In this document: positions 1,031-28,643 of the stretch, piece by piece | Position numbering within the stretch: the first letter of the stretch is position 1 | How the letters are laid out: the number at the start of each line of letters is the position of its first letter | Notes under the pieces: generated by a model | The model's input: only the letters and a program-made list of their open reading frames with translations | Databases searched by the model: none | Told to the model about the DNA's origin: nothing | Translations under genes and position numbers: made by a program | Assembly (NCBI GenBank): GCA_963697875.1 | Contig: OY969099.1 | Span: 88,419-152,418 of the forward strand | Length of the DNA stretch: 64,000 bases | Origin: an uncultured Actinomycetes bacterium | Lineage (GTDB): Bacteria > Actinomycetota > UBA4738 > HRBIN12 | Direction of reading: 5' to 3'

Positions 1031-3193
1031 CTAACGTCCGACCAGGGCACACGCGCGGGCCGACGCCGCGCGCGCTCGTTCCACGTCCTCGGCCGAAGGG
1101 CGTTGGTGCGGCCGCGCGAATCGCTGTCGCTCGAAGATGCGGACCACGGTCTCGGCGAGCGAGCGGACCTCGGGGACGACGTCGTCGGAGTCCAGGCCGG
1201 CGATCAGCTCGCTCGGGGTCTCGGACGGATGCCGGTGGTGACCCGAGTCCGCCAGCGCGGCGACGAGCTCCTCGAAGGCGGCACCGATCGCGTCGAGGGG
1301 CTGGCGCCGTTCGCGGCGCCGGCGCCGAGCGAGGATCCCGAGTGCGAGCGCCGAGACCGCCGCGATCCACACCAAGACGCGTCCCGCCGTCACGGCGGCC
1401 ACCATGCGTCCCGTCGCCGCCACGACGGCCTTCACCGGCCGCGGCACGGCGTGCGCGATCGATCGGCCAATCATCGCCAGGAGCTGGGGTGCGACGAACC
1501 ACGAGCCCCACGACTGCTGCGCGGCGGGCACACCGAACGTCGGGTCGTACGGCAGCCAGCCCGCGCCGGGGTAGTAGACCTCGACCCAGGCATGCGCGTC
1601 GGACTGCCGTACCTCGAAGTAGCCGGTGAGCGGGTTGCGTTCGCCGGGCCCGTAGCCGGTCACCACGCGTGTCGGGATGCTCGATGCTCGCAGCAGAACG
1701 GCCATCGCGCTCGCGATGTGCTCGCAGAACCCCCGGCGCGTGTCGAACAGGAAATGGTCCACCGCGTCGACGCCGTCGGGCTCACGAGGGACCGTCAGGT
1801 CGTAGGTCGTGTGCTGCTGCAGCCACGACTGCACCGCCATGGTCGCGTCGAACTCGGATCGAGCGCCGGCAACGATCGACCGCGCCAGCTCGACGTCGCG
1901 TGCAGGAAGGTCCGCCGGGAGCTGCAGGTACGGACGGAGCGCCCGCGCGTCTGTGCGCGGCGCCGGCAGGCGCCGTAGCAGGTCGGGCTCGATCGACGGG
2001 ATCTCGGACTCGACCGAGTACACGAGGCCCTGGTCCAAGAGGATCGGGGAACGGATCGAACCGTCCTCGCTCACACGCAGACCCCCGGCCGGGAAGTACA
2101 CGGTGTCCACCCGCGCCGCGCCGAACAGCACGTTCGGCTGTGGCGTGTCGATGTAGAAGGTCTGGACCAACCGCGTCGCGTACGTCGGAGCGAGGCTGAC
2201 GTCGAGCCGGCCCGGAGGCACCGAGAGGCCGTCGACCAGGTCCCAGGCGGACACCGGCCGCAACCGATCGCTCGAGGCCGTCCACACCCGGCCGTCGAAG
2301 GTGTCGAACGCCTCCGCTCGCCAGAGTGCAGGCCGGCTCGCGCGCACGCGGAACGCGATCTGGTCCGAGAGCTGGCCTCTGGCCCGGAGGTCCATCGCGT
2401 CGCTGAATCCCGGGTAGCCGTCCGGAGCGAAGTCCACGACCCCGTCGGACCCGGCGGGCGGGAGCCCGGGATTGCCGATCGCGTCATCTGGCGCGGCCGA
2501 CGGAGCGCGGTCGCCGAGCGAGAACGGGGGTGTGCGCACGAGCGAGGCCGGTACGTGCGGCATGACCATGAACACCGCCGCCCCCGCCGCCAGTGCCGCG
2601 ACCCATGCGAGGGAGCCGGAGCGGACGCCCGCGAGGCGTTGGCGGCGCCGGGTTCGCACGTGTCGGATCGAGAGCGGTTCGGCGACCTGGTCTGGACGAG
2701 GCCGCGCCGAGAGCCGCAGCCAGGTCCCGGCGAGCGCCGCCCACGCGAGCAGGTACCAAACGAAGCCGGTGGTGAGCGCGAGCACGCCGGCCGCCGCGAT
2801 CAGCGTGGTGCTCGACACCATGGAGAACGCCAGGTCGCGCCGACGCGGGACGTCGAACGCGTGGAGCACCTGGACCCACAGGAACAGCGTCGCGAGGGGC
2901 ACGCGCGCCTCGTCGACGGTGCGCACGACCCGCGCGTGATCGAGGAACTGCCCAAGCGCGACGAACAGCCCGGCCGCCAGCAGGAGCTTCACGACGACGC
3001 CGGATCGCCGGCGACGCACGTAGGAGAACGCGTAGGCGGCCGGGGCGAGCACCGCAGACACGATGCCGACCGCCGGGTCGACGGCCCCGCGGGACACGAC
3101 GGCGAGGATCCCGACCTCCACCGCGAACGCGACCACCACCCGCATCGCGAGCGAGTCCTCGGGCGGACCGGAAGCGTGCGCGCGCAGCTTCAC
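1031..3193 (-). CDS. TgpA-like membrane transglutaminase-domain protein (DUF3488 + transglutaminase)
   Basis: N-terminal TM helices; GFCEHIASAMAVLLR and DAHAWVEVY...W..YDPT catalytic motifs; follows DUF58/MoxR. Confidence 0.9.
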   Translation of the reverse strand: MKLRAHASGPPEDSLAMRVVVAFAVEVGILAVVSRGAVDPAVGIVSAVLAPAAYAFSYVRRRRSGVVVKLLLAAGLFVALGQFLDHARVVRTVDEARVPLATLFLWVQVLHAFDVPRRRDLAFSMVSSTTLIAAAGVLALTTGFVWYLLAWAALAGTWLRLSARPRPDQVAEPLSIRHVRTRRRQRLAGVRSGSLAWVAALAAGAAVFMVMPHVPASLVRTPPFSLGDRAPSAAPDDAIGNPGLPPAGSDGVVDFAPDGYPGFSDAMDLRARGQLSDQIAFRVRASRPALWRAEAFDTFDGRVWTASSDRLRPVSAWDLVDGLSVPPGRLDVSLAPTYATRLVQTFYIDTPQPNVLFGAARVDTVYFPAGGLRVSEDGSIRSPILLDQGLVYSVESEIPSIEPDLLRRLPAPRTDARALRPYLQLPADLPARDVELARSIVAGARSEFDATMAVQSWLQQHTTYDLTVPREPDGVDAVDHFLFDTRRGFCEHIASAMAVLLRASSIPTRVVTGYGPGERNPLTGYFEVRQSDAHAWVEVYYPGAGWLPYDPTFGVPAAQQSWGSWFVAPQLLAMIGRSIAHAVPRPVKAVVAATGRMVAAVTAGRVLVWIAAVSALALGILARRRRRERRQPLDAIGAAFEELVAALADSGHHRHPSETPSELIAGLDSDDVVPEVRSLAETVVRIFERQRFARPHQRPSAEDVERARAASARACALVGR

Positions 3194-4320
3194 GCCCGCA
3201 CCTCGTTCGCCAGGTCAAGCATCGCGGCCGCGTCCCGGTCGTCGTCGGGACCGATCGGAACCGGGACCACCACGACGCGCGCGACGAGACCGGTCAGCCG
3301 ACGGACCGCGGCTTCCGACCGCACGACGTCTCGATCCGGCCACGAGGGGACGACGACGAGCGCCGTCTCCACCCCGCGAAGCTCGGCGTGCCCCAGGCCG
3401 TCGAGGACGTCGTCGAGCGGCCGCGCCGACGCCTCGAGCCGGGCGAGCCACCGGAGACCCTCCTCGCCACACGCGCCGAAGAGCACGTCCACCGCACCGG
3501 TCCGGCGCGCCGCGATCAAGCGGACCCCGTGCCCGTGCGCGAGCGCCGCGTCCATCACGGACGCCGCGACGCTGCACCCGCGATCGAGCGGCGTCCACGA
3601 GGTTCCCGCGTCGCGCTCGGTGTCGACGACGACCGCGAGACGCCGCGTCTGTTCCTCTTCGAACTCCCGCACCATGACCTGGCCGTGACGCGCCGTCAGC
3701 GGCCAGTGGACGTGGCGCAGGGAGTCGCCCGATCGATACTCGCGGACGCTCAGGTACTCGGGGCCGCGGCCCGGGCGAGGCGAGGTGTGGATCGCCGCCT
3801 CGGTCGTGCTGACGGGGACGACGTACCGTGGCGGACTCATCGGGACGACCCGTGGGAGCACGAGCGTCGCGGCGTCGACCGGCAACCGTCGGCTGCGCTC
3901 GGCGACACCGAACGGCGCGCTCGAGCGAACCGTCACGGACGTCGTCCGGACGTCCCCGCGTCGCAGCGGGCGGCGGAAGGTCGTGAGGTCCACGCGCTCC
4001 CCCGGCCCGACGGAGGCGACGTAGACCTCCGTCGGCCAGAGGTGGGCGTCGGCCACAACGACCGCCCAGCGGGTGCCCAGCCCCCGGTTCGTGAGGCGGA
4101 GATCGACGAACGAATCCTCGCCCTGCATCGCCTCGCGCGGCGACACGAGCTCGACGTGAAGACCGCGGAGCGCCGCGAACGGCAGCACCAGCCCGGCCAC
4201 CAGGGCGCCCAGCAGGAGTGCCGCCAATACGTAGAGCCAGCCTGCCTGGACGTTCGTGCCGATCACGAACAGGATGGCGGCGCCGCCGAGGAGCGATGCG
4301 GCCCGCTTGCGCAGCCGCAT
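3190..4320 (-). CDS. DUF58 domain protein
   Basis: EYLSVREYRSGDSLRHVHWPLTAR..VMVREFE motif. Confidence 0.9.
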   Translation of the reverse strand: MRLRKRAASLLGGAAILFVIGTNVQAGWLYVLAALLLGALVAGLVLPFAALRGLHVELVSPREAMQGEDSFVDLRLTNRGLGTRWAVVVADAHLWPTEVYVASVGPGERVDLTTFRRPLRRGDVRTTSVTVRSSAPFGVAERSRRLPVDAATLVLPRVVPMSPPRYVVPVSTTEAAIHTSPRPGRGPEYLSVREYRSGDSLRHVHWPLTARHGQVMVREFEEEQTRRLAVVVDTERDAGTSWTPLDRGCSVAASVMDAALAHGHGVRLIAARRTGAVDVLFGACGEEGLRWLARLEASARPLDDVLDGLGHAELRGVETALVVVPSWPDRDVVRSEAAVRRLTGLVARVVVVPVPIGPDDDRDAAAMLDLANEVRA

Positions 4321-5336: not shown

Positions 5337-6179
5337 TCAGCCGTCCCTGCGCGCGCGGAGCGTCCACATCAACGGGATCGTTCCCTGCTGGTCCGGCGGG
5401 AACCCCCATCGGTCCTCGCCGAGGGGGACCAGCCAGGGCAGCTCCCATTCGAGCCACGGCTTCTCGTCGAGCAGCTCGATGCGGAGGCCGTGGCGGGCCA
5501 GGCCCGTGACGATCCTGCCGAGCGGGTGGTTCCAGCCGTGCTCGACCTCGGCCTCGACCTCGGCGTCGCGGTCCGCGTAGGTCCCCTGCACGGGGAAGCT
5601 CAGGGTCCGACCGCCCCAGTAGTCGAAGGCGAGGGTGAGCGGGTTGGGCACCGTCTGCTCCTCGGCGATCGTCTGCACGACCGGATGGATCTCGTGCAGG
5701 TAGAACAGGCCGCCGGGCGCGACGCACCCGGCGACGACGTCCGCCCAGCGGTCGATGTCGGGCAGCCATCCGAGCACCCCACGCGACGTGTAGACGACGT
5801 CGAAGGTCTCTCCCGCGAGGGCCTCGGGCATCGAGGACACGTCGGACTCGACGAACCGCGCCGTCCCTCCCAGGCCGACCTCCTCGGCCAGCCGTCGCGC
5901 GAAAGCGATGGCCGAGGGCGAGAAGTCGACCCCGGTGACCTGCGCGCCCAGGCGCGCCCACGACAGGGTGTCGAGCCCGAAGTGACACTGCACGTGCAGC
6001 AGCGTCTTCCCCGTGACGTCGCCGACGTCGTCGCGCTCGAACGGCCGGATCCTGATGTCGGCCGGATCGGTCCGGAACCGTTCGACGTCGTAGAAGGACC
6101 CCGTCGTGTGGATCGCGGTCCACGCCTCCCAGAGTCGCTTGTTGTCGGCGAGCTCTCCCGCGTGCGGATCCTCGTTCAC
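5337..6179 (-). CDS. Class I SAM-dependent methyltransferase
   Basis: LHVQCHFGLDTLSWARLGAQVTGVDFS, FDVVYTSRGVLGWLPD; GTG start inferred at 6179. Confidence 0.9.
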   Translation of the reverse strand: MNEDPHAGELADNKRLWEAWTAIHTTGSFYDVERFRTDPADIRIRPFERDDVGDVTGKTLLHVQCHFGLDTLSWARLGAQVTGVDFSPSAIAFARRLAEEVGLGGTARFVESDVSSMPEALAGETFDVVYTSRGVLGWLPDIDRWADVVAGCVAPGGLFYLHEIHPVVQTIAEEQTVPNPLTLAFDYWGGRTLSFPVQGTYADRDAEVEAEVEHGWNHPLGRIVTGLARHGLRIELLDEKPWLEWELPWLVPLGEDRWGFPPDQQGTIPLMWTLRARRDG

Positions 6180-7204
6180 GACGTCCGCTTCGCCGCCAGA
6201 GCGCCGACCGCCTCGAGCACGCACCGGTGCGCCAGCGCCGCCGTCACCTCCGCGTGGTCGTACGGCGGCGACACCTCGACCACATCCATCCCCACCAGGT
6301 CGACGGCGCCGACGATCTGGCGGATCGCGCGAAGCAGCTCGCGCGGCAGCATGCCGCCCGGCTCGGGCGTGCCGGTCCCCGGCGCGTTCCCCGGGTCCAC
6401 GACGTCGATGTCGACGGAGAGGTAGATGCACTCGGGCCCGTCGAGTGCCTCGCCGATCGCGTCGGCGATCACCGCCTCGCTCCCCCGCTCCTCCATCTCG
6501 GTCATGCGATGCCACCGCATACCCTGCTCGTCCATCCAGTCGAACGTCTCCTTCTCGGGCCAGTAGCCGCGAAGCCCGAGCTGCACGAAGTTCCGCCCGG
6601 CGACCCAGCCTTCCTCGATCAGCTTCCGCATCGGCGTGCCGTGGCTGAGGAGCGACCCCCAGACCTCGAGGCCCGTGTCGGCGTGCGCGTCGAAGTGGAT
6701 CAGACCGACCGTCCGGGGATGCACGGCGCGAACGACCGCGGCACAGGAGGGATACGTGATCGCGTGGTCGCCGCCGAGCACGATCGGGACGGCGCCCGTC
6801 CGCGCCACTCGGAGGACCTTCTCGTGCACGACGCGCAGGGCGCGCTCGAGCCGTGACGCGACCACCGGCGCGTCGCCCGCGTCGGCGCACCGCACCTTGT
6901 CGAACAGCGACGTCTGCAGCTGGATCGACCACAGGTCGCCCGAGTGGTAGGTGGCGGCGCGGATCGCGCGCGGCCCGAACCGCGCGCCTGGACGGTTGGA
7001 CGCCCCCTCGTCGACCGGCGCGCCGACGATCGCGACCTCCGGCGCATAGGCCGCCAGCGCCTCGTCGTCGGGGATCCAGGGAAGCTTCTGGAACGACGTG
7101 GAGCCGACGTAGCTCGGGAGTTCCGCGTCGGAGAACTCGTCGTACTCGGAGGCTCCCTCCAGGAGCTCGGAGCGTTCGATCCGGAACTCGGGGGCGTCGG
7201 CCAT
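6176..7204 (-). CDS. speB: Agmatinase / ureohydrolase family
   Basis: GARFGPRAIR, LGGDHAI, HFDAHADT, SHGTP, SVDIDVVDP...PGTGTPEPGG. Confidence 0.85.
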   Translation of the reverse strand: MADAPEFRIERSELLEGASEYDEFSDAELPSYVGSTSFQKLPWIPDDEALAAYAPEVAIVGAPVDEGASNRPGARFGPRAIRAATYHSGDLWSIQLQTSLFDKVRCADAGDAPVVASRLERALRVVHEKVLRVARTGAVPIVLGGDHAITYPSCAAVVRAVHPRTVGLIHFDAHADTGLEVWGSLLSHGTPMRKLIEEGWVAGRNFVQLGLRGYWPEKETFDWMDEQGMRWHRMTEMEERGSEAVIADAIGEALDGPECIYLSVDIDVVDPGNAPGTGTPEPGGMLPRELLRAIRQIVGAVDLVGMDVVEVSPPYDHAEVTAALAHRCVLEAVGALAAKRTS

Positions 7205-20393: not shown

Positions 20394-21692
20394 TCAAGGC
20401 GCGCAGAGTATCGCTTGGGGTTGATCTCCGACTTTAGCGAGTACTCCGATATCGACTCTGTGCTCCAAGTCGATCATCCCAAGCATTCCCGACTCGCGAT
20501 CTACTGTAAAGACCCAAGGGCCGTCGCTTGCCGCTGAGAGCGCCCAGAAAGGGGACGTGGCAACGCTCACGACGTTGCTCCAGTCTGACGTGTCGACCGC
20601 CAGAATCTCGTCCGCTCGCACGTCTGAGCTCTCTCCAGGCGACAGGCCAAGGATAAGTTGATCTCCCCTGTAAGAGATACCGACCTGCGAGACACCGATG
20701 AGACGATCGGGCGGCATGTCCAACTTTGCGGTCAAGGACACGGTTTGCGCTTCTACATCAACGACCGTAACGCGACCATCACGCGATACGACGTAGAGCA
20801 ACGTCCCGTCCGGAGAAAGAACCGCTCCGCTCACAAAACTCGCATCAATGACGTTCCCATTCCCGTCGGTCGTCGTCGACGCACTCCTAGAGAGGGATAG
20901 GGTCGCCTCATTGACCGCGCTGCCTTCCTCTGAAATTTTGAGGAATCGCACGTCGTTGGAGGTTGGGCAAACGGCAATAACCTCACCACCTAGTCGCGGA
21001 ATGATCAAAGGTGCACCGCAGCCTTGAAGGCCCGCCGTTTGCGGGAGCACCTGCCCACGGCCGGCATCGTAGGTCGCAAGTGACTGATGCTGACCAGAAC
21101 CGCCGCTGTCAGATCCCACAAGAATGTAGGCATCCGCTCCGTCTGGCGACGCCGCAATCTTACTTGTCAGATGGAAGCCAGTGGTTCCTTGCCATTGGAA
21201 GGGAAGCACAAGCTTCGTCTGGCTGCCAGTCTGGGTACTTACCACAGTGAGTGTGTCTTCTATCTCGTTGTCACTCACGAAGGTCCTCGACACACCGAAT
21301 AGGCGTGCCCCGTCAGCCGAGATAGCCACGTCAGCGTCGAGCCCCAACGTGTAGCTCTTGACCTCGGTTGCACGGCCGTCGGATATCTCCACCGCAGTTA
21401 CCGACGCATGGATGTTGTCGCCTTCTGGGGCGGAATCGAGAACATAGACGAGACTTGGCTCGAGCGGTCCTATCGCGGGATGGCTGTTCGTTGGAGCTCG
21501 GCCCCCGATCCCCGGAACCACAATGACGGTAGCAACGAGGAGCGCAAGTACCGCGCCGGACAGGCTGAATGCGAGGAGCGATTGCCGGAACCGAATCCGA
21601 CGCGTTCGCTCGTAAGTTAGACCTCGAAACCGTCCAGCGTCCACAATTGATTGGTCCATTGCTTCTCGCAGTCGCCGTTCCAGCTCCTTCAT
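20394..21692 (-). CDS. Putative anti-sigma factor with extracytoplasmic amine-dehydrogenase heavy-chain (MauB)-like beta-propeller
   Basis: Basic cytoplasmic N-term MKELERRLREAM..RTRRIRFR + single TM; ATGA-coupled to ECF sigma; propeller motifs VYVLD, AISADG.RLF, SPDG, C-term VGDQPQAI. Confidence 0.7.
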   Translation of the reverse strand: MKELERRLREAMDQSIVDAGRFRGLTYERTRRIRFRQSLLAFSLSGAVLALLVATVIVVPGIGGRAPTNSHPAIGPLEPSLVYVLDSAPEGDNIHASVTAVEISDGRATEVKSYTLGLDADVAISADGARLFGVSRTFVSDNEIEDTLTVVSTQTGSQTKLVLPFQWQGTTGFHLTSKIAASPDGADAYILVGSDSGGSGQHQSLATYDAGRGQVLPQTAGLQGCGAPLIIPRLGGEVIAVCPTSNDVRFLKISEEGSAVNEATLSLSRSASTTTDGNGNVIDASFVSGAVLSPDGTLLYVVSRDGRVTVVDVEAQTVSLTAKLDMPPDRLIGVSQVGISYRGDQLILGLSPGESSDVRADEILAVDTSDWSNVVSVATSPFWALSAASDGPWVFTVDRESGMLGMIDLEHRVDIGVLAKVGDQPQAILCAP

Positions 21693-22213
21693 TCCTCTTC
21701 ACCACCCTCGATCCGCCTTAGCGTCCCTAGACCCCTCGACACGAGAGAATTCACGGCTCGTAGCGACACTCCCATGACGTCGGCTGTCTGGTGCTCGGAA
21801 AGGTCCTCGTAGAAGCGGAGAACCAATGCCGTCCTCTGTCTGATGGGCAGCTGCTGAAGCAGCTGCCACAGGCTGTTCCGGATTTCGATGTCCGGTATTT
21901 CCTGGGCACTCGATCTTCCGGGCTGCTTCGCCAGATAGCGCGCCTCGGCAGATCGCCTGCGGAAGTGACTCCTCGCCAGGTTCACGACCGTTCGCCGGAG
22001 GTAATACTCGAAACGATCGCGTTTGCGAAGGTGGCCAAATCTTGCGACAATCCTAACGAACGCCTCTTGAGCCAGGTCGTCGGCAAGATCTCGATCGCCG
22101 GTCAGGAGATAAGCCAGCTGGTAGGCATCAGCCGCGTAGGCGTCGTAGAGGGCCGCGAGTCTAGTCGCGTCCTCTCCTTGGTCGCCCTCAGCGCTGCTCA
22201 TGACCCACGCCAC
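21689..22213 (-). CDS. SigE-family ECF RNA polymerase sigma factor
   Basis: AYLLTGD...ADDLAQEAF, YLRRTVVN, LP.RQRTALVLRFYEDLSE.QTA. Confidence 0.92.
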   Translation of the reverse strand: MAWVMSSAEGDQGEDATRLAALYDAYAADAYQLAYLLTGDRDLADDLAQEAFVRIVARFGHLRKRDRFEYYLRRTVVNLARSHFRRRSAEARYLAKQPGRSSAQEIPDIEIRNSLWQLLQQLPIRQRTALVLRFYEDLSEHQTADVMGVSLRAVNSLVSRGLGTLRRIEGGEEE

Positions 22214-22346: not shown

Positions 22347-23180
22347 TCACCGAGACGAACTGATCAGCGAAACGATGAAGAAGACTCCGACCGAGCTGAG
22401 CAGGATGCCGTTCAATAGCTTGACGACGGGCTCGAAGCCCTGGATACGATCAATGAGCGACTCGAGACGATCGGTATTCGCAGCTCGCGGAACCCCAATG
22501 AGTAAGAGAGGTAAGTAACGCCCGAAGCCGAATGTCGCAACTACCAGCATGGCAGGGAGCGGATTCTCGATGAAGAAGGCCCATGCAAGGACTAGGTAGA
22601 AGGTTGAAACAGGGATGAACGTCCACAAACCGGCCCCCAGCGTCGCTCCATAGAGAAGTCCAGTCACTGATGGACGGTAATGTTTGTACCACCCTGAAGG
22701 AACTTGCCGATGTACCTGAGGTCTCGGGATCTTGAGCAGCGACGCGTCTGCCAGCCCGAAGGAGATTCCGAGAACTCCTAACGCGAGACCCGCCGCAAAG
22801 TCGCGCGTAGCAGGAGCAGTTGAGGCAAGCGCAAGACGACCGAGCGTGGAAACAGAAACTCCCAGCGCTGCCGCGCCAAACAGGCTTCCTATTCCGAACG
22901 TGATCAACGACGTTGCGAGTCTGCTGTTAACCCTTTCCCCATACCCGATGGGGAGCATGGTTCCAACCATGCTGGATCCTCAGGGTGACCATAAGGTGGA
23001 AAGGCCCGCGATCAACGCCGTAACGGTAAGCACAGGCACGCTGGAGCCTGTACCAATGCGTCCAGGCCATTCAATGGCGACTGCCGAGGACACCGCCGCC
23101 AGAATAACGACGAGGGCGAGACGGCGAGCGGAGCTAGGAACCTCGTACCTGCCATGCGTCGCAGGTTGAATGGATTCCAT
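22347..23180 (-). CDS. mauF: MauF-like/CcdA-like membrane protein with in-frame TGA (candidate selenocysteine) at 22980-22982
   Basis: Two track ORFs are in frame across STLWSP-TGA-GSSMVGTM; downstream RQVP..W, G.LYG..LGAG..T motifs; GGAGG RBS before ATG 23180. Confidence 0.7.
22954..22973 (-). promoter_or_regulatory. Candidate bacterial SECIS hairpin
   Basis: AGCATGGT-TGGA-ACCATGCT perfect 8-bp stem beginning 7 nt after the TGA; G at 2nd loop position. Confidence 0.55.
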
Positions 23181-23188
23181 GAACCCTC

Positions 23189-23739
23189 CTAGCAGGCCCC
23201 AATCTCGATGATTCGTGTACACATGTAGGCGCCTCCGCAACCGCCTTGCCCGTAGTAGGGACCTGTCCCCGGATAACCGGGAAGGCAGCAACCCTGCAGC
23301 CGAGGCAGTTGTTAATCTTGGTCGTGCCGCACGGCCCGTTCACCGAATCTCCGTGGGACCAGCAGTCCCGATAGCGATACTTGATTCTCTCGCCCCCGGG
23401 GAAGTTGCAGCAAGACTCCCACCAGCCACCCGTGCAAGCGCACGTCGGACACCTGCTCGAGTCTCCACTGCAATCCGAGCAGCCACATTGATGTCCGCAA
23501 AAGCCGCATAGGCCGTACGAGTCGCATGGCAGAGTGGCAGCTCGTGCAGCATCGCGGCCGGTAGGCAGGATCTCAGTGACAACGGCAATCCCCAATCCCG
23601 CAAACGCGACTCGACCGATCTTGGCAAGGAGGCCCCTCCTCGACGTGCCTTGAGACAATGCTTCAGACCCACGCTGCGCCCATGCGTCCACGGGGTGAAG
23701 ATCCACGGATGATTGCTCGTCATTCTCGTGGCTATCCAT
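23189..23739 (-). CDS. Tat-exported Cys-rich amine-dehydrogenase light-chain (MauA)-like protein; 1-nt frameshift at ~23292-94
   Basis: SRRGLL Tat motif + AxA; GWWESCC, YRYRDC; adding one G restores ...GCCLPG...YMCTRIIEIGAC* ending next to the RBS of the next gene. Confidence 0.7.
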
Positions 23740-24373
23740 CGATTCCAACTCCTTCTGATGAGCCCGAGATGGGCGCACCTTCCAGAGCACGCAGTTCCAT
23801 TAGAGATTCCACGCTGTCGAGACCAGCTTCTCCTGCATGGATCAAGCTCTCCAGATGTTCAAGACTGTTCACAATCCCTTTCGCCCTCACGGACCCGAAC
23901 TCGTCAACGAAGATGCCGTAGGGCGTGCCATGTACTTCGTACTCTTCTTGTAGCTGTTTCGAGACAACCGTCCGAAGGTGCCCTAGCCCATTTTGGAGAA
24001 TGAACTCTCTTACGCCCTCTGAAGTACCCGAGCTGATCAGTATCGTGTCTGTAGTTGCTCGTTCACTTCTTGCTACCGACCTCAAGGCCGGTGCGATGTC
24101 CCGGCATGAACTGCACGTCTCCGAGACGAAGACCAGAAATGTCTTCCTACCTCCAATGCTGCCGAGCGTTGCTGGTCGTCCGTTCAGGTCAAGCAGGTCG
24201 AAACTTGGTGCACTTTCACCGATTTCCGGACCTAGCCTTGCGATTCGCGCGCCGAACGGCTGAATTCGTCGATGGAGCAGCCCGATTTGCCGCACCATGG
24301 CCAGACTGAGCACAGTTACGAGCAAGACAACAAACCACAGAAGGAGATAAGACACTAAGAGTGGCGTGCTCAT
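23732..24373 (-). CDS. mauD: Methylamine dehydrogenase accessory protein MauD (thioredoxin-like)
   Basis: RQIGLLH.RI.P.GA, GP.IGE.AP, FVS.TCSSC, PY...VDE.G.VRAKGIVNSLEHLESL. Confidence 0.9.
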   Translation of the reverse strand: MSTPLLVSYLLLWFVVLLVTVLSLAMVRQIGLLHRRIQPFGARIARLGPEIGESAPSFDLLDLNGRPATLGSIGGRKTFLVFVSETCSSCRDIAPALRSVARSERATTDTILISSGTSEGVREFILQNGLGHLRTVVSKQLQEEYEVHGTPYGIFVDEFGSVRAKGIVNSLEHLESLIHAGEAGLDSVESLMELRALEGAPISGSSEGVGIDG

Positions 24374-24388: not shown

Positions 24389-25036
24389 TTAGCTGGCTCG
24401 AGCTCTAGTAACTGCGTTGAGATCTAGGTCGTGATGATGTTGAGCGGGCCGGACCGACTCACGAGCAGATTGGCCGGTCACCAAGACACCGCACATGCGC
24501 GAAAGAGAGACGATTGCCCTGATGAGGACCACGGAACTCAAAACCCCGATTGCCAAGAAGGCTCCCCCTATCGCATCTCGCGATTCGACGGATCCAGGGC
24601 CGGTGGGGTCCCAGGAGACCTGGAACCAGGGATCGTGGAGAACAGAGACGACGAGAGCTACCGCCAGTGCGAGAAGAAGGACATTGCGCACCACGGTCGC
24701 CCACGAGATGTTCTTCGCGTGTGAGATCCCAAAGCAGCCACAATCCATCGGGCGGCCACGCTGAAGGTTGATCGCGACGGCGCCGGCGAAGACGAGCAGG
24801 AGCCCGCTCAGAACAAGGGACACCCATCCAAGGAGCACGCCCAGGACCAAGAGGAGGCCACATGCGATCTCCACCAGAGGAATCCAAGTGGCCACTAGGC
24901 GCGACGACCGGGGACCCAGCAACCGATAGTTCCTGACCGTCTCCGCGAAGTCGTCCCGATGAGCAACCTTCGCGATGCCCGCAACCACGAACACCGCGCC
25001 TAGGAAGAGACGGATCGCCAGCAGCCAGTACCCCAT
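24389..25036 (-). CDS. mauE: MauE/DoxX family membrane protein
   Basis: F..AG.AK....F...VRNYRLL, INLQRGR..DCGCFG, VVRN. Confidence 0.9.
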   Translation of the reverse strand: MGYWLLAIRLFLGAVFVVAGIAKVAHRDDFAETVRNYRLLGPRSSRLVATWIPLVEIACGLLLVLGVLLGWVSLVLSGLLLVFAGAVAINLQRGRPMDCGCFGISHAKNISWATVVRNVLLLALAVALVVSVLHDPWFQVSWDPTGPGSVESRDAIGGAFLAIGVLSSVVLIRAIVSLSRMCGVLVTGQSARESVRPAQHHHDLDLNAVTRARAS

Positions 25037-25974
25037 CTCAGCCGCCTCCAGGGTTGCTCACCTACGAAGCTAGTCCTTCCACGGATCGGCGGTCAAATCC
25101 GCCGAGAACACGTTGAAAGACCAGCCGATTGGTGGAGCAGTACCGACTGATGCTATGCCCTCTGATGCAATGCGTTCGATTCCGACCTCGGCTACCCACC
25201 GGCATCCTTTGCCCGACCGATGCCGGTTTCATCATCCGGCGTCCTCCCCCGCCGTTGTGCCTGCCCGTGCCAGGGCGAGTCGCCCAGTGACCTCCTCCCC
25301 GCGAATCACGCCCTGCCCGGATCACGCCGGCTGCATCTGGACTGGTGGCTTGCGTGGTCGTGTCGATCTCGGGGGTCCGCGCGTTCGGTGAGGCTGTCCA
25401 AGACGATCCGCGCCAACCGCGACCGGGCCTTTGCGGCGCTCCACCACCCCCCGTTCGTGACCTGGGCAGTTTCTGATGGCCGCCATCACCCGCGCCTGGA
25501 CGCGCTTGTCAACCCGACCGGTCCACGGGGGCCAGATCATGCTCCCGGAAAACGTCACTCACGGACGGAGTCCCGACCTGCCCCTTCGCAAACTCCCCAA
25601 TTTCTCGCCGGCTGCTGGCGGCACGGTTCGACCCGCGTCCCCGCCTTTGTACGGATGGAGATGATCACACCCAAGACCTGCTCGCCGACGAGGCTCCGCC
25701 GGCCGGAGGCGAACGCCCCACCGCCATCGCTGGATACCACGCAGCGTGCCGAGGAGAACCCGGAGCGCTTCCGGCCGGGTCCCGTCGGGATCGACCAAGC
25801 CCTAGCGTCGATCGCGCCGCGTAAGGCTCTCTTCGAGGACGCGAACACAGGGGCAGGCCGCGATCCGGGCGCCGGGCCCCTGGCCGGTCCGCCCGCCAGC
25901 CCCATCGCCGGATCATCATCTGGCGGGTCCTCCCCCGTCGACCGGCCTGCTCGTGCGGCATGCGAGGTGGCCGG

Positions 25975-26823
25975 ATGAGTGCCCGGGATCACGTTTCACT
26001 TCGTTCACGTTCTTCTTTTCGATCTGCTTCTTTGATCACGAGCTACTCCCACCGATTGACCAGACGAGACTTCGAAATCCTGATCGAGCTTTACGAGCAC
26101 AGAGTTCTGACCACTCCGCAAGTCTTCGAGCTTCACTTCGAGACCCACACCCGAGCTTCCAAGCGGATGCTCCAGCTCTACCGCCTCGGATTGGTGGAAC
26201 GCTTCCGGCCCCACACCCCGACCGGCTCCGCGCCCTGGCACTACACGCTGGATGAGCCGGGAGCTCGGCTGGTCGCCGCTCGCCAAGAGATCGACTTCAA
26301 GGACTTCACCTTCAAGAAGGCCCGGATCTTCGACATGGTCGGAAGCCCCAGGCTCCGGCACCGCGTCGAGTGCAACGGCGTCTTCGCCCGGCTCACCCTT
26401 GCCTGCCGACGGCGCGGCTGGGAGCTCGAGTGGATCGGGGAGCGTCGGGCGACGGCTTCGTGGGACTCGAAGATCACCCCTGACGGGATCGGGCGCATCC
26501 GGGCGGGAGATCGCGAGATCTCGTTCTTCCTCGAGTACGACCGGGGAACAGAATCGCACGAGCAGCTGGCGATCAAGACCTACCGCTACCGACTGGTCGG
26601 CCGCACCGTTCGCTCCGAGGACGCGCTGCTGTTCGTCTTCCCAAGCGCCGCCCGGGAGCGCTATGCGCGAAGCGCGCTGATCGGCTCCTCCGTTCCGGTC
26701 GCTACGGTGGTACGGGCCGAGGTGCTCCGCCACCCACTCGGAACGGTGTGGCTGCCGTTTGGCGAGGACCGACGCCGGATGATCCTGGAGCTGCCCAGAG
26801 CGCCCCGTGACCAGCCTTGGTGA
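25975..26823 (+). CDS. Replication-relaxation (Replic_Relax) family protein
   Basis: RLT.RD.EIL..LYEHRVLTT.Q, HYTLD..GA, L.H....N..F, PDG.G, FFLEYDRGTE. Confidence 0.88.
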   Translation: MSARDHVSLRSRSSFRSASLITSYSHRLTRRDFEILIELYEHRVLTTPQVFELHFETHTRASKRMLQLYRLGLVERFRPHTPTGSAPWHYTLDEPGARLVAARQEIDFKDFTFKKARIFDMVGSPRLRHRVECNGVFARLTLACRRRGWELEWIGERRATASWDSKITPDGIGRIRAGDREISFFLEYDRGTESHEQLAIKTYRYRLVGRTVRSEDALLFVFPSAARERYARSALIGSSVPVATVVRAEVLRHPLGTVWLPFGEDRRRMILELPRAPRDQPW

Positions 26824-27020: not shown

Positions 27021-28643
27021 TCTACCTCAGGGTGTCCACGAAGGAGCAGGCCGCAAAGGACGATTCGGGCGAGGGCTACTCCAACCCCCGCTCAGCGTGA
27101 GGCGTGCCTGCGGCTCGTTGCCGAGCGCGGATGGAACCTCGCCGGCGAGTTCACGGACGCTGGCGAGTCCGCGCGCACCGCCGACCGCCCGATGCTGAAG
27201 GCTCTCCTTCGCCGAGTGGCAGACGGCGGGATCGGCGCCGTCATCGTCCACAAGATCGACCGTCTTGCCCGCTCGATGGAGGACCATGTGGCCATCAGGG
27301 CGGCTCTTCGTCGCGGGGGCGTCCAGCTGGTGTCGGTGACCGAGAACATCGAGGAGACGGCCTCAGGACGGCTTGTGGAGGGCATCCACGCGCTGATGGC
27401 GGAGTTCTACTCGGCGAACCTGGCAGGTGAGATCCGAAAGGGCATGAGCCAGAAGGCGAAGATGGGCGGCTGGCCGACGAAGGCCCCGGTCGGTTACCTG
27501 AACGTTCGGGAGAAGATCTCGGGCAAGGATATCGCCAAGGTCGTCCTCGATCCCGAGCGGGCGCTGCTCGTGCGGGAGCTGTTCCGACTGTACGCGACTG
27601 GGGAGTACTCGCTTGCCGAGCTGCAGGCGACCATGCACGCGAAGGGGTTGACCTCGCCCTTCGCGAGAAGACCCGGCGCGCCGGTTTCGGTCTCCAAGCT
27701 CGCCGAGATGCTCGCGAACCCGTTCTATGTCGGAGTGGTGCAGTGGGACGGTGTGCGCTACCCCGGCCAGCACAAGCCGCTCGTTCCGCAGTCCTTGTTC
27801 GACCGGGTGCAGCAGACGCTTCGCTCCCGCGACGTCGCCGGGGTCCGCCAGCGTCGACACGAGCACTACCTGAAGGGGCTCCTTCACTGCGGAGAGTGCG
27901 GAAGGCGGCTGTCGCTCACGCTCGCCAAGGGCACGTACCTGTACTTCTACTGCCTGGGACAGCGAGGCACCGCCCGCACCGGGTGCCGCCAGCCGTATGT
28001 CCTCGCCGCCGACGCCGAGGCGCTCCTGGAAGAGCTGTACCGGCGGATCGAGCTGCCGAGGTCCTGGGTCGACCGGCTGACCGAGGAGCTGGAAGCGGAG
28101 ATCGTTGAGCGGCAGGCCGAGGCCTCAGAGCGGCGCGTCGTCCTCACGAGAACGCTCGCCAGGCTCGCCGAGGAGCGCGGCAAGCTGCTGCAAGCCTTCT
28201 ACGCGAACGCGATCCCGCTCGAGCTCCTGAAGGCCGAGCAGGACCGGATCGGCCTCGCCGAACAGGCGGCAAAGGCCGAGCTCGCGGCCGCGGAGGGCGA
28301 CCTCGACGGCTGGCAGGACGTCCTTCGCACCGCGATCCGACTCGCCGGCAACTGCTACGCCGCGTATATGAAGGGGCGCCAGTCGGTGCGGCGACGCTTC
28401 AACGACGCGGTCCTCGAGGCTGTGTACATCAAGAACCGACGGATCGGCCGGGCGGAGTTTTCCGACGTCTTTGCGCCGCTTTTCTCTCGCCCGAGTTCGA
28501 ATAAGAGCCTGAAAGTGGAGGTGGGGGGAATCGAACCCCCGTGTCCGGGCGACCGACTGGGGCTTCTCCGGGCGCATCCGGCGGGTGATGTCTCGCCTCG
28601 AGGCTCCCACCGGCGGAGGACCTCTCGGCCAGCCCGGGTGTGA
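27008..28643 (+). CDS. Large serine recombinase (integrase), +1 frameshift at ~27083-89; C-terminus runs antisense into tmRNA
   Basis: MDAVIYLRVSTKEQ (catalytic Ser) then stop at 27098; one base fewer gives PAQREAC...DAGESAR..DRP...VHKIDRLAR, recombinase domain and CxxC Zn ribbon. Confidence 0.88.

Follow-up and report, generated by a model that had tools for sequence, protein, structure and literature searches.

In the methylamine utilization (mau) clusters of Paracoccus and Methylobacterium, mauF is linked to mauE, to mauD and to a gene for a small Cys-rich protein with a twin-arginine translocation (TAT) signal. MauF of Paracoccus ferrooxidans is housed in such a cluster of the textbook type, mauFBEDA-amicyanin-JG, and to our knowledge MauF has not yet been given an established function in mau clusters. 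CcdA and DsbD, membrane proteins with which MauF can be compared, possess two essential Cys in one polypeptide, located in transmembrane helices 1 and 4. Alternation of selenocysteine (Sec) and Cys at one position among homologues is a signature of Sec, and such a position is a catalytic redox residue. The classical bacterial selenocysteine insertion sequence (SECIS; E. coli fdhF type, as in the bSECISearch rules) is a stem-loop 3' of the UGA with a G in its apical loop. Table 1 of PMC13188914 (May 2026) lists 119 prokaryotic selenoprotein families and contains no MauF-, CcdA- or DsbD_2-type entry; the nearest entry to the protein reported here is TsoB (NF045694), a rhodanese/DsbD fusion-like selenoprotein which, compared by its description in that table, is alike in being a DsbD-like selenoprotein and unlike in its rhodanese fusion and its UxxxxU motif with two Sec. 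Here we describe a gene for a MauF homologue, Sec-MauF, in a stretch of 64,000 nucleotides from an uncultured Actinomycetes bacterium (assembly GCA_963697875.1, contig OY969099.1, positions 88,419 to 152,418; this whole stretch is called the window, and the bacterium the host), in which an in-frame TGA is almost certainly a selenocysteine codon.

The gene, its recoding site and the two RNA hairpins that follow it are located as follows (positions are those of the window):

22350..23180, minus strand: Sec-MauF coding sequence, 277 codons by translation, with its terminal TGA at 22347-22349
23184..23189, minus strand: Shine-Dalgarno-like GGAGGG upstream of the ATG at 23180-23178, by direct reading of the sequence
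22980..22982, minus strand: UGA codon 67, read here as selenocysteine, in the motif W-S-P-U-G-S-S-M; homologues have TGA or Cys at the same column
22954..22973, minus strand: hairpin 1, AGCAUGGU-UGGA-ACCAUGCU, a perfect 8 bp that starts 6 nt after the UGA
22937..22953, minus strand: hairpin 2, CCCCAU-CGGGU-AUGGGG, directly after hairpin 1, with a loop that begins 34 nt after the UGA

Around the recoding site the codons are TGG TCA CCC TGA GGA TCC AGC ATG. Translation confirmed these codons and the in-frame flanking reading frames that a sequence-only reading of the window had reported, the read-through product being 277 residues long with the extended motif S-T-L-W-S-P-U-G-S-S-M and having no Cys besides position 67. 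The label 'MauF-like' given in that reading was also right, since tblastn of 72,556 plasmids returned only 14 matches, all annotated as MauF (13 from Paracoccus and 1 from Methylobacterium; best E 1e-13). Compared with Paracoccus MauF, the window protein shows 33% identity over ~220 residues (blastp, 2e-21), and where it carries the extended motif MauF of P. ferrooxidans reads L-S-T-W-S-P-C-G-Y-S-S. The MauF Cys thus aligns with the U of the window protein (STWSPCG versus STLWSPUG), which means that the TGA stands in for the conserved Cys of MauF; both proteins moreover have an extra N-terminal helix.

The sequence-only reading had proposed to look for alternation of TGA and Cys among homologues, and this is what was found: over 84 homologous loci with a located motif, the codon-67 column holds TGA in 70 and Cys in 14, and canonical MauF is itself a Cys form. 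A six-frame search of 101 related genomes revealed the protein in 68 of them, at 75 matched places, of which 73 contain exactly one in-frame TGA and the other two stop short of residue 67. Among the loci fetched first, TGA occupies the identical column in 30 out of 30, with the protein conserved on both sides. A sample of 401 genomes of the phylum gave a match in 85, the 24 new loci consisting of 20 with TGA and 4 with TGC, and in a further 32 regions the motif could be located in 29 (19 TGA, 10 Cys). Loci L093, L094 and L101, without a P-[UC]-G motif by the pattern used, were left out of these counts, and 9 of the 70 TGA loci stem from genomes flagged as unpublished (L037, L044, L056, L058, L059, L061, L064, L066 and L076). 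The closest public relative (locus L083, from a metagenome-assembled genome of an Actinomycetota bacterium) encodes a protein with 46% identity and has TGA at the same column. In the protein alignment P66, U/C67, G68, M71 and P77 are invariant and there is no second conserved Cys.

Written as DNA, hairpin 1 is AGCATGGT-TGGA-ACCATGCT (22973-22954), and this perfect hairpin just 3' of the UGA is present in the window as quoted in the sequence-only reading. The loop G on which that reading relied does occur in the window, 16 nt past the A of the UGA, but is not family-wide (loops CGCC, CUCG and UUCC are found in other members); the conserved loop G belongs to hairpin 2, a hairpin missing from the earlier reading, the first loop base of which is G in 70 of 70 TGA loci, followed by G or U. 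This second loop opens with GGUC in 18 of the 70 TGA loci and with GGUCU or GGUCC in 16, and the family core of hairpin 1 can be written as GAUGSU-NNNN-ASCAUC. The fold energy of the 65 nt from the UGA in the window is by itself only modestly unusual (-23.1 kcal/mol, z = -2.2, 5 of 200 shuffles being equally stable), and the weight of the argument rests on conservation across homologues. The post-codon region aligns without gaps, and in 50 TGA sequences 93.3% of the cells of the two-helix structure are paired, whereas pairing falls to 35-61% when the partners are slid by 1-3 columns as a control. Changes on both sides are seen in 7 of the 14 pairs (2 in helix 1 and 5 in helix 2), with a covariation score that was reached by 0 of 500 shuffles. 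These base changes are informative in that they come at the price of altered residues: pair 25/32 of helix 1 goes from G-C to C-G in 17 of the 50 sequences, as M-V..T-I becomes M-L..S-I, and pair 21/36, in the window type, is flipped in the same way by a move between the two Ser codon families (TCG to AGC) combined with a replacement of Ile by Met. Helix 2 occurs as CCCCGC/GCGGGG, CCCCCG/CGGGGG and CCCCAU/AUGGGG. At least 5 of the 6 core pairs of helix 1 are present in 67/70 TGA loci versus 2/14 Cys loci, and at least 7 of the 8 pairs of helix 2 in 52/70 TGA loci versus 1/14 Cys loci. Conservation of the hairpin, another check suggested beforehand, hence turned out in its favour: the structure is kept in TGA forms with compensatory changes and largely lost in Cys forms.

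Judged from this pattern, both hairpins together form a putative recoding signal, in which either one may be the SelB-binding hairpin. Like the classical SECIS, the element has a stem-loop immediately 3' of the UGA within the coding sequence and a G opening an apical loop within ~16-37 nt, and some hairpin-2 loops (GGUCU, GGUCC) resemble the hairpin of the host formate dehydrogenase gene; unlike the classical SECIS, it consists of two adjacent conserved hairpins instead of one, the proximal of which lies nearer to the UGA than does the hairpin of the host formate dehydrogenase gene and has a variable loop. The sole match in an Rfam scan of positions 22700-23200 by E-value was to a miRNA, at chance level (E 8.6). 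In a divergent Sec subfamily (L112 and L113, genomes G410 and G254), with the motif SPUGLSVTETVTP, the first of the two positions still holds a hairpin, though one of unrelated sequence (GUCAC...GUGAC). Locus L102 (G420:C97) has two in-frame TGAs and a hairpin 1 weakened to 4/6 pairs, and may be a decaying copy.

The host, whose genome is one contig of 3.13 Mb with 69% G+C, is equipped for Sec insertion. The machinery asked for by the sequence-only reading was all found, namely SelA (487 bits), SelB (315 bits), a Cys-type SelD (386 bits) and a tRNA-Sec (72.9 bits), each above its curated cut-off; for the tRNA-Sec, ARAGORN gives the anticodon TCA. Moreover, the host encodes a formate-dehydrogenase-like molybdopterin enzyme (G000:C1:2694887, minus strand) with Sec in the motif N-R-T-U-H-A-P, and in this gene a hairpin GUGGUC-GGUCU-GGCCAC starts 12 nt after the UGA. 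Across the phylum sample SelA (E <= 1e-30) was detected in 266 of the 401 genomes, and Sec-MauF, being common in this phylum, may help explain why the Sec trait is retained there. Broken down by gene form, SelA is present in 63/68 TGA-form genomes versus 5/14 Cys-form genomes, a difference for which a Fisher p of 1e-5 is too favourable, as relatives are non-independent. In five TGA-form genomes SelA was not detected; three of these have a tRNA-Sec of >77 bits near contig ends and one has a C-terminal fragment of SelA. The SelA tallies include genomes flagged as unpublished (G101, G117, G145, G213, G264, G313, G324, G348, G459 and G477).

An AlphaFold2 model of the window protein, built with 46 family sequences (pLDDT 85.4, pTM 0.82), predicts an all-helical membrane protein with residue 67 at a break that separates helix 47-64 from helix 66-75. 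Sec-MauF would accordingly be, in this model, an integral membrane selenoprotein with its Sec inside a transmembrane helix. The resemblance to CcdA/DsbD (PF02683, PF13386) lies in a reactive residue after Pro at a transmembrane-helix break in both, in a match of the window protein (P0001) to Pfam DsbD_2 (34 bits versus a cut-off of 24.9) and in CcdA (5VKV) as the top Foldseek match of the model, a weak one (E 0.043, probability 0.95, TM-score 0.30-0.35). A wide VIA-align search put RnfE/NqrE-type subunits in its top rows, at Z 5.4-5.9, below the meaningful level for helical bundles, and the family profile gave no relevant match to PDB sequences. Unlike CcdA/DsbD, the Sec-MauF family has the single conserved position 67 and no second conserved Cys, and the CcdA-type two-Cys electron relay is not applicable as such to a protein without Cys besides its Sec.

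Only the window protein passes DsbD or DsbD_2 of Pfam, four other family members and canonical MauF giving no match to these models. Canonical MauF has no match to any Pfam or NCBIfam model, neither collection containing a MauF model. A scan of five family members with NCBIfam release 20.0 yielded nothing beyond one ArsG match of 22.7 bits, and the TsoB model had no match in these scans at E <= 0.01.

The genes around Sec-MauF in the window, all on the same strand, make up an operon with the order MauE, MauD-like protein, Cys-rich TAT protein, Sec-MauF, extracytoplasmic function (ECF) sigma factor and a 432-aa protein:

24389..25036, minus strand: MauE membrane protein with a DCGCF motif (PF07291, 5.9e-31)
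23732..24373, minus strand: MauD-like membrane-anchored thioredoxin-fold protein with a CSSC motif (TIGR02661, 156 bits, below the cut-off of 188.6; AhpC-TSA)
23189..23739, minus strand: Cys-rich protein with the twin-arginine signal SRRGLLAK and an apparent 1-nt frameshift near 23285-23300
21689..22213, minus strand: ECF sigma factor, directly downstream of Sec-MauF, in the same order as in L083
20394..21692, minus strand: 432-aa protein overlapping the end of the sigma gene, with weak propeller matches only

The DCGCF motif of MauE is identical in Paracoccus MauE, and the CSSC motif that the sequence-only reading had attributed to MauD is indeed present in the MauD-like sequence. The window cluster and the mau clusters are alike in the linkage of mauF to mauE, mauD and a small Cys-rich TAT-signal protein. 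They are unlike in that the window has Sec for Cys and an attached ECF sigma factor and lacks the methylamine dehydrogenase (MADH) heavy chain, amicyanin, MauG and MauJ; the gene set that marks a MADH cluster (mauB for the heavy chain, mauA for the light chain, and mauG) is thus not the one found here. The Pfam models of the MADH subunits (PF06433 and PF02975) gave no match in the host genome, and the control genomes were equally silent.

A MauD-like gene is found just upstream in 50 of the 54 loci with flanks of ~1.5 kb, and L083 has the gene order of the window together with both hairpins, an IS element being inserted after MauF. The host encodes a second Sec-MauF of another subfamily (~225 aa; G000:C1:999641, locus L081, about 5570-6250, plus strand), where the order is MauE, Cys-rich TAT protein, MauD-like protein (CLTC) and Sec-MauF, with a thioredoxin-like gene downstream; the MauE Pfam matches above cut-off in the host adjoin only its two Sec-MauF genes. 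A third subfamily (~400 aa) consists of natural in-frame fusions, in which Sec-MauF is followed at the C-terminus by a MauE domain with its CxC motif (MauE-domain matches of 2.6e-19 in L024, 1486-2688, and of 9.3e-17 in L036, 1471-2718), and here too the preceding genes encode a MauD-like protein and a Cys-rich protein with a TAT signal.

For the Cys-rich protein of the window, the top 7 PDB matches are MADH light chains, with weak E values of 0.008-0.29. A profile of 17 Cys-rich neighbour proteins gave no MADH match, none of the 4 neighbours scanned matches Pfam, and the B-type one has no PDB relative; 'MauA-like' is therefore a weak label, resting on a single PDB search. Read in frame, the gene continues as ...NNCLGCRVAAF... 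to a stop at 23134, and in another frame a Cys-rich tail, matching the C-terminus of the L083 homologue, runs up to the TAG at 23191-23189, overlapping the MauF ribosome-binding site. What had been called a 20-Cys substrate is Cys-rich as stated, whereas the count itself requires reading through the apparent frameshift and the in-frame reading has fewer Cys. Either a genuine lesion or a homopolymer error of the long-read assembly could explain this frameshift. Among the sequencing runs listed as containing this DNA none is an RNA run, and the sole DNA run, a soil metagenome (share 0.13), covers 23887-24190 only.

Taking these data together, three other explanations of the TGA were weighed. The sequence-only reading had itself cautioned that a simple TGY-to-TGA nonsense change was possible, and a plain nonsense mutation in a decaying island gene, hence a pseudogene, could be suspected from the frameshift in the adjacent Cys-rich gene and from the mobile-element genes nearby (a relaxase and a recombinase). 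This caveat is refuted by the conservation of the TGA: 70 of 84 loci, spread over many genera, have it, the coding sequence before and after it shows purifying conservation, and L083 shares the TGA, both hairpins and the operon at 46% protein identity. A one-off nonsense mutation is excluded because the same-column TGA is conserved along with the protein on both sides, and we consider a pseudogene extremely improbable. Alternatively, the UGA might be a true stop, so that two conserved products would be made, a one-helix peptide of 66 residues with W-S-P at its end and a protein of 207 residues from Met-71, with the hairpins coupling termination and reinitiation. All members have an ATG 4 codons past the TGA, and the product from that Met is what gene callers predict, but the contiguous Cys forms conserve this Met just as well, which makes it part of the protein motif; the TGA, moreover, sits precisely at the invariant Cys, TGA forms track SelA and the hairpins are lost where Cys is encoded, all of which make two polypeptides highly improbable.

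A third possibility is read-through without Sec, in which a near-cognate tRNA (for Trp or Cys) or a locally altered code would decode the UGA. Protein P0043 has been called with W at this column, although this reflects a code choice of the gene caller and is not biological evidence, and TGA is an ordinary stop in these genomes, where it ends this very gene and most family members. As the Sec machinery of the host is complete and is accompanied by a formate dehydrogenase of the classical Sec type, and as alternation with Cys is the signature of Sec, we regard such a decoding as very unlikely.

The homology, the Sec/Cys alternation, the conserved RNA structure, the Sec machinery and the gene linkage and fusion described above are instead best joined in the reading, very probably correct, that the gene specifies a full-length 277-residue integral membrane selenoprotein, a MauF homologue with Sec for the conserved Cys, which acts in a relay with MauE and MauD. 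Several observations nevertheless weigh against this reading. The link to CcdA/DsbD is weak, with DsbD_2 matching the window protein only and a low Foldseek TM-score, and the frameshift in the adjoining Cys-rich gene means that the window copy of the operon could be decaying, an assembly error being equally possible. The independent covariation events are few, corresponding to the three subfamilies plus L112/L113, and all hairpin sequences are coding, so that amino-acid constraint adds to the covariation pattern. Finally, hairpin 1 starts 6-8 nt after the UGA, compared to 12 nt in the host formate dehydrogenase gene, and lacks a conserved G in its loop, whereas the loop of hairpin 2 is farther away (~34 nt after the UGA).

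In the proposed mechanism, SelB would recode UGA-67 with Sec-tRNA, steered by the pair of hairpins within 50 nt downstream of the UGA, and place Sec at the one conserved Cys site of the family (W-S-P-C-G), predicted to be at the transmembrane-helix kink. The likely partners are MauE, a membrane protein with a CGC motif, and MauD, a membrane-anchored thioredoxin-fold protein with a CxxC motif; MauF, MauE and MauD could together form a thiol/selenol exchange relay that matures the co-encoded Cys-rich TAT-signal protein. MauF would supply a single intramembrane nucleophile (Cys or Sec), and its exchange partner would reside on a different subunit, the MauE CGC being the most plausible candidate, unlike CcdA/DsbD with both Cys in one polypeptide. 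The parts of this scheme that we infer are the insertion of selenium itself, the redox function, the direction in which electrons flow and the identity of the substrate. In its widest form the proposal is tentative, quite possible though somewhat short of probable: Sec-MauF would be an undescribed, very widespread Actinomycetota-type family, truncated by every gene caller, that constitutes the selenium-dependent core of a MauE-MauF-MauD relay, in which a single intramembrane selenol without a resolving Cys of its own exchanges with the MauE CGC. The relay would mature Cys-rich TAT proteins unrelated to methylamine growth, and recoding would rely on a two-hairpin SECIS variant.

How far the family extends was estimated by a profile search of 1.84 billion protein cluster representatives, which gave 5418 matches at E <= 0.001 and 659 at E <= 1e-30. 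Within the best 150 clusters, for which the residue was broken down, 84 start at the Met four residues past the Sec, 63 are contiguous with Cys, 1 has W and 2 are ambiguous; the 84 starts at that Met indicate gene calls cut at the TGA. Likewise, all 8 of 8 word-index matches to the window protein start at the same Met. The W belongs to P0043 (ENA metagenome, 481 aa; FGPWGLSMVETI), presumably because the gene caller read TGA as Trp. Ten members carry the recorded names 'hypothetical protein' or 'MFS family permease'. As a consequence of such gene calls, thousands of database proteins are N-terminally truncated at the TGA and lose the transmembrane helix with the active residue.

As to prior description, DsbD, MauE and methylamine are unmentioned in the main texts of deep-Sep (PMC12013277), the GOS survey (PMC2398784) and Peng et al. 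2016 (PMC5029168), and MauF is unmentioned in the main text of deep-Sep. In the literature searched we found no report linking selenoproteins with MauF, MauE, CcdA or methylamine utilization, although the family may have been described before. Sec-MauF appears to be a new selenoprotein family within a known kind of bacterial Sec/Cys redox proteins. For MauF itself, the Sec/Cys alternation would mark the WSPCG Cys as a working redox residue, and if the relay exists as proposed MauF would for the first time have a function assigned to its active residue. That Cys is now open to direct mutagenesis in Paracoccus or Methylobacterium.

A few minor observations concern the surroundings of the operon. 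A Replic_Relax relaxase-like gene and a serine recombinase gene (25960-26823 and 27192-28643, plus strand) lie side by side next to it, a mobile-element setting; the Resolvase match of the recombinase starts at profile position 52, and the protein may be N-terminally truncated. In L083 the IS element between Sec-MauF and the ECF sigma gene encodes a DDE_3 transposase (L083:6788-7861), and an rve-type integrase is located upstream (2339-3490). The 432-aa protein at the end of the window operon is possibly an anti-sigma or beta-propeller protein, and its positional counterpart in L083 is a 419-aa open reading frame.

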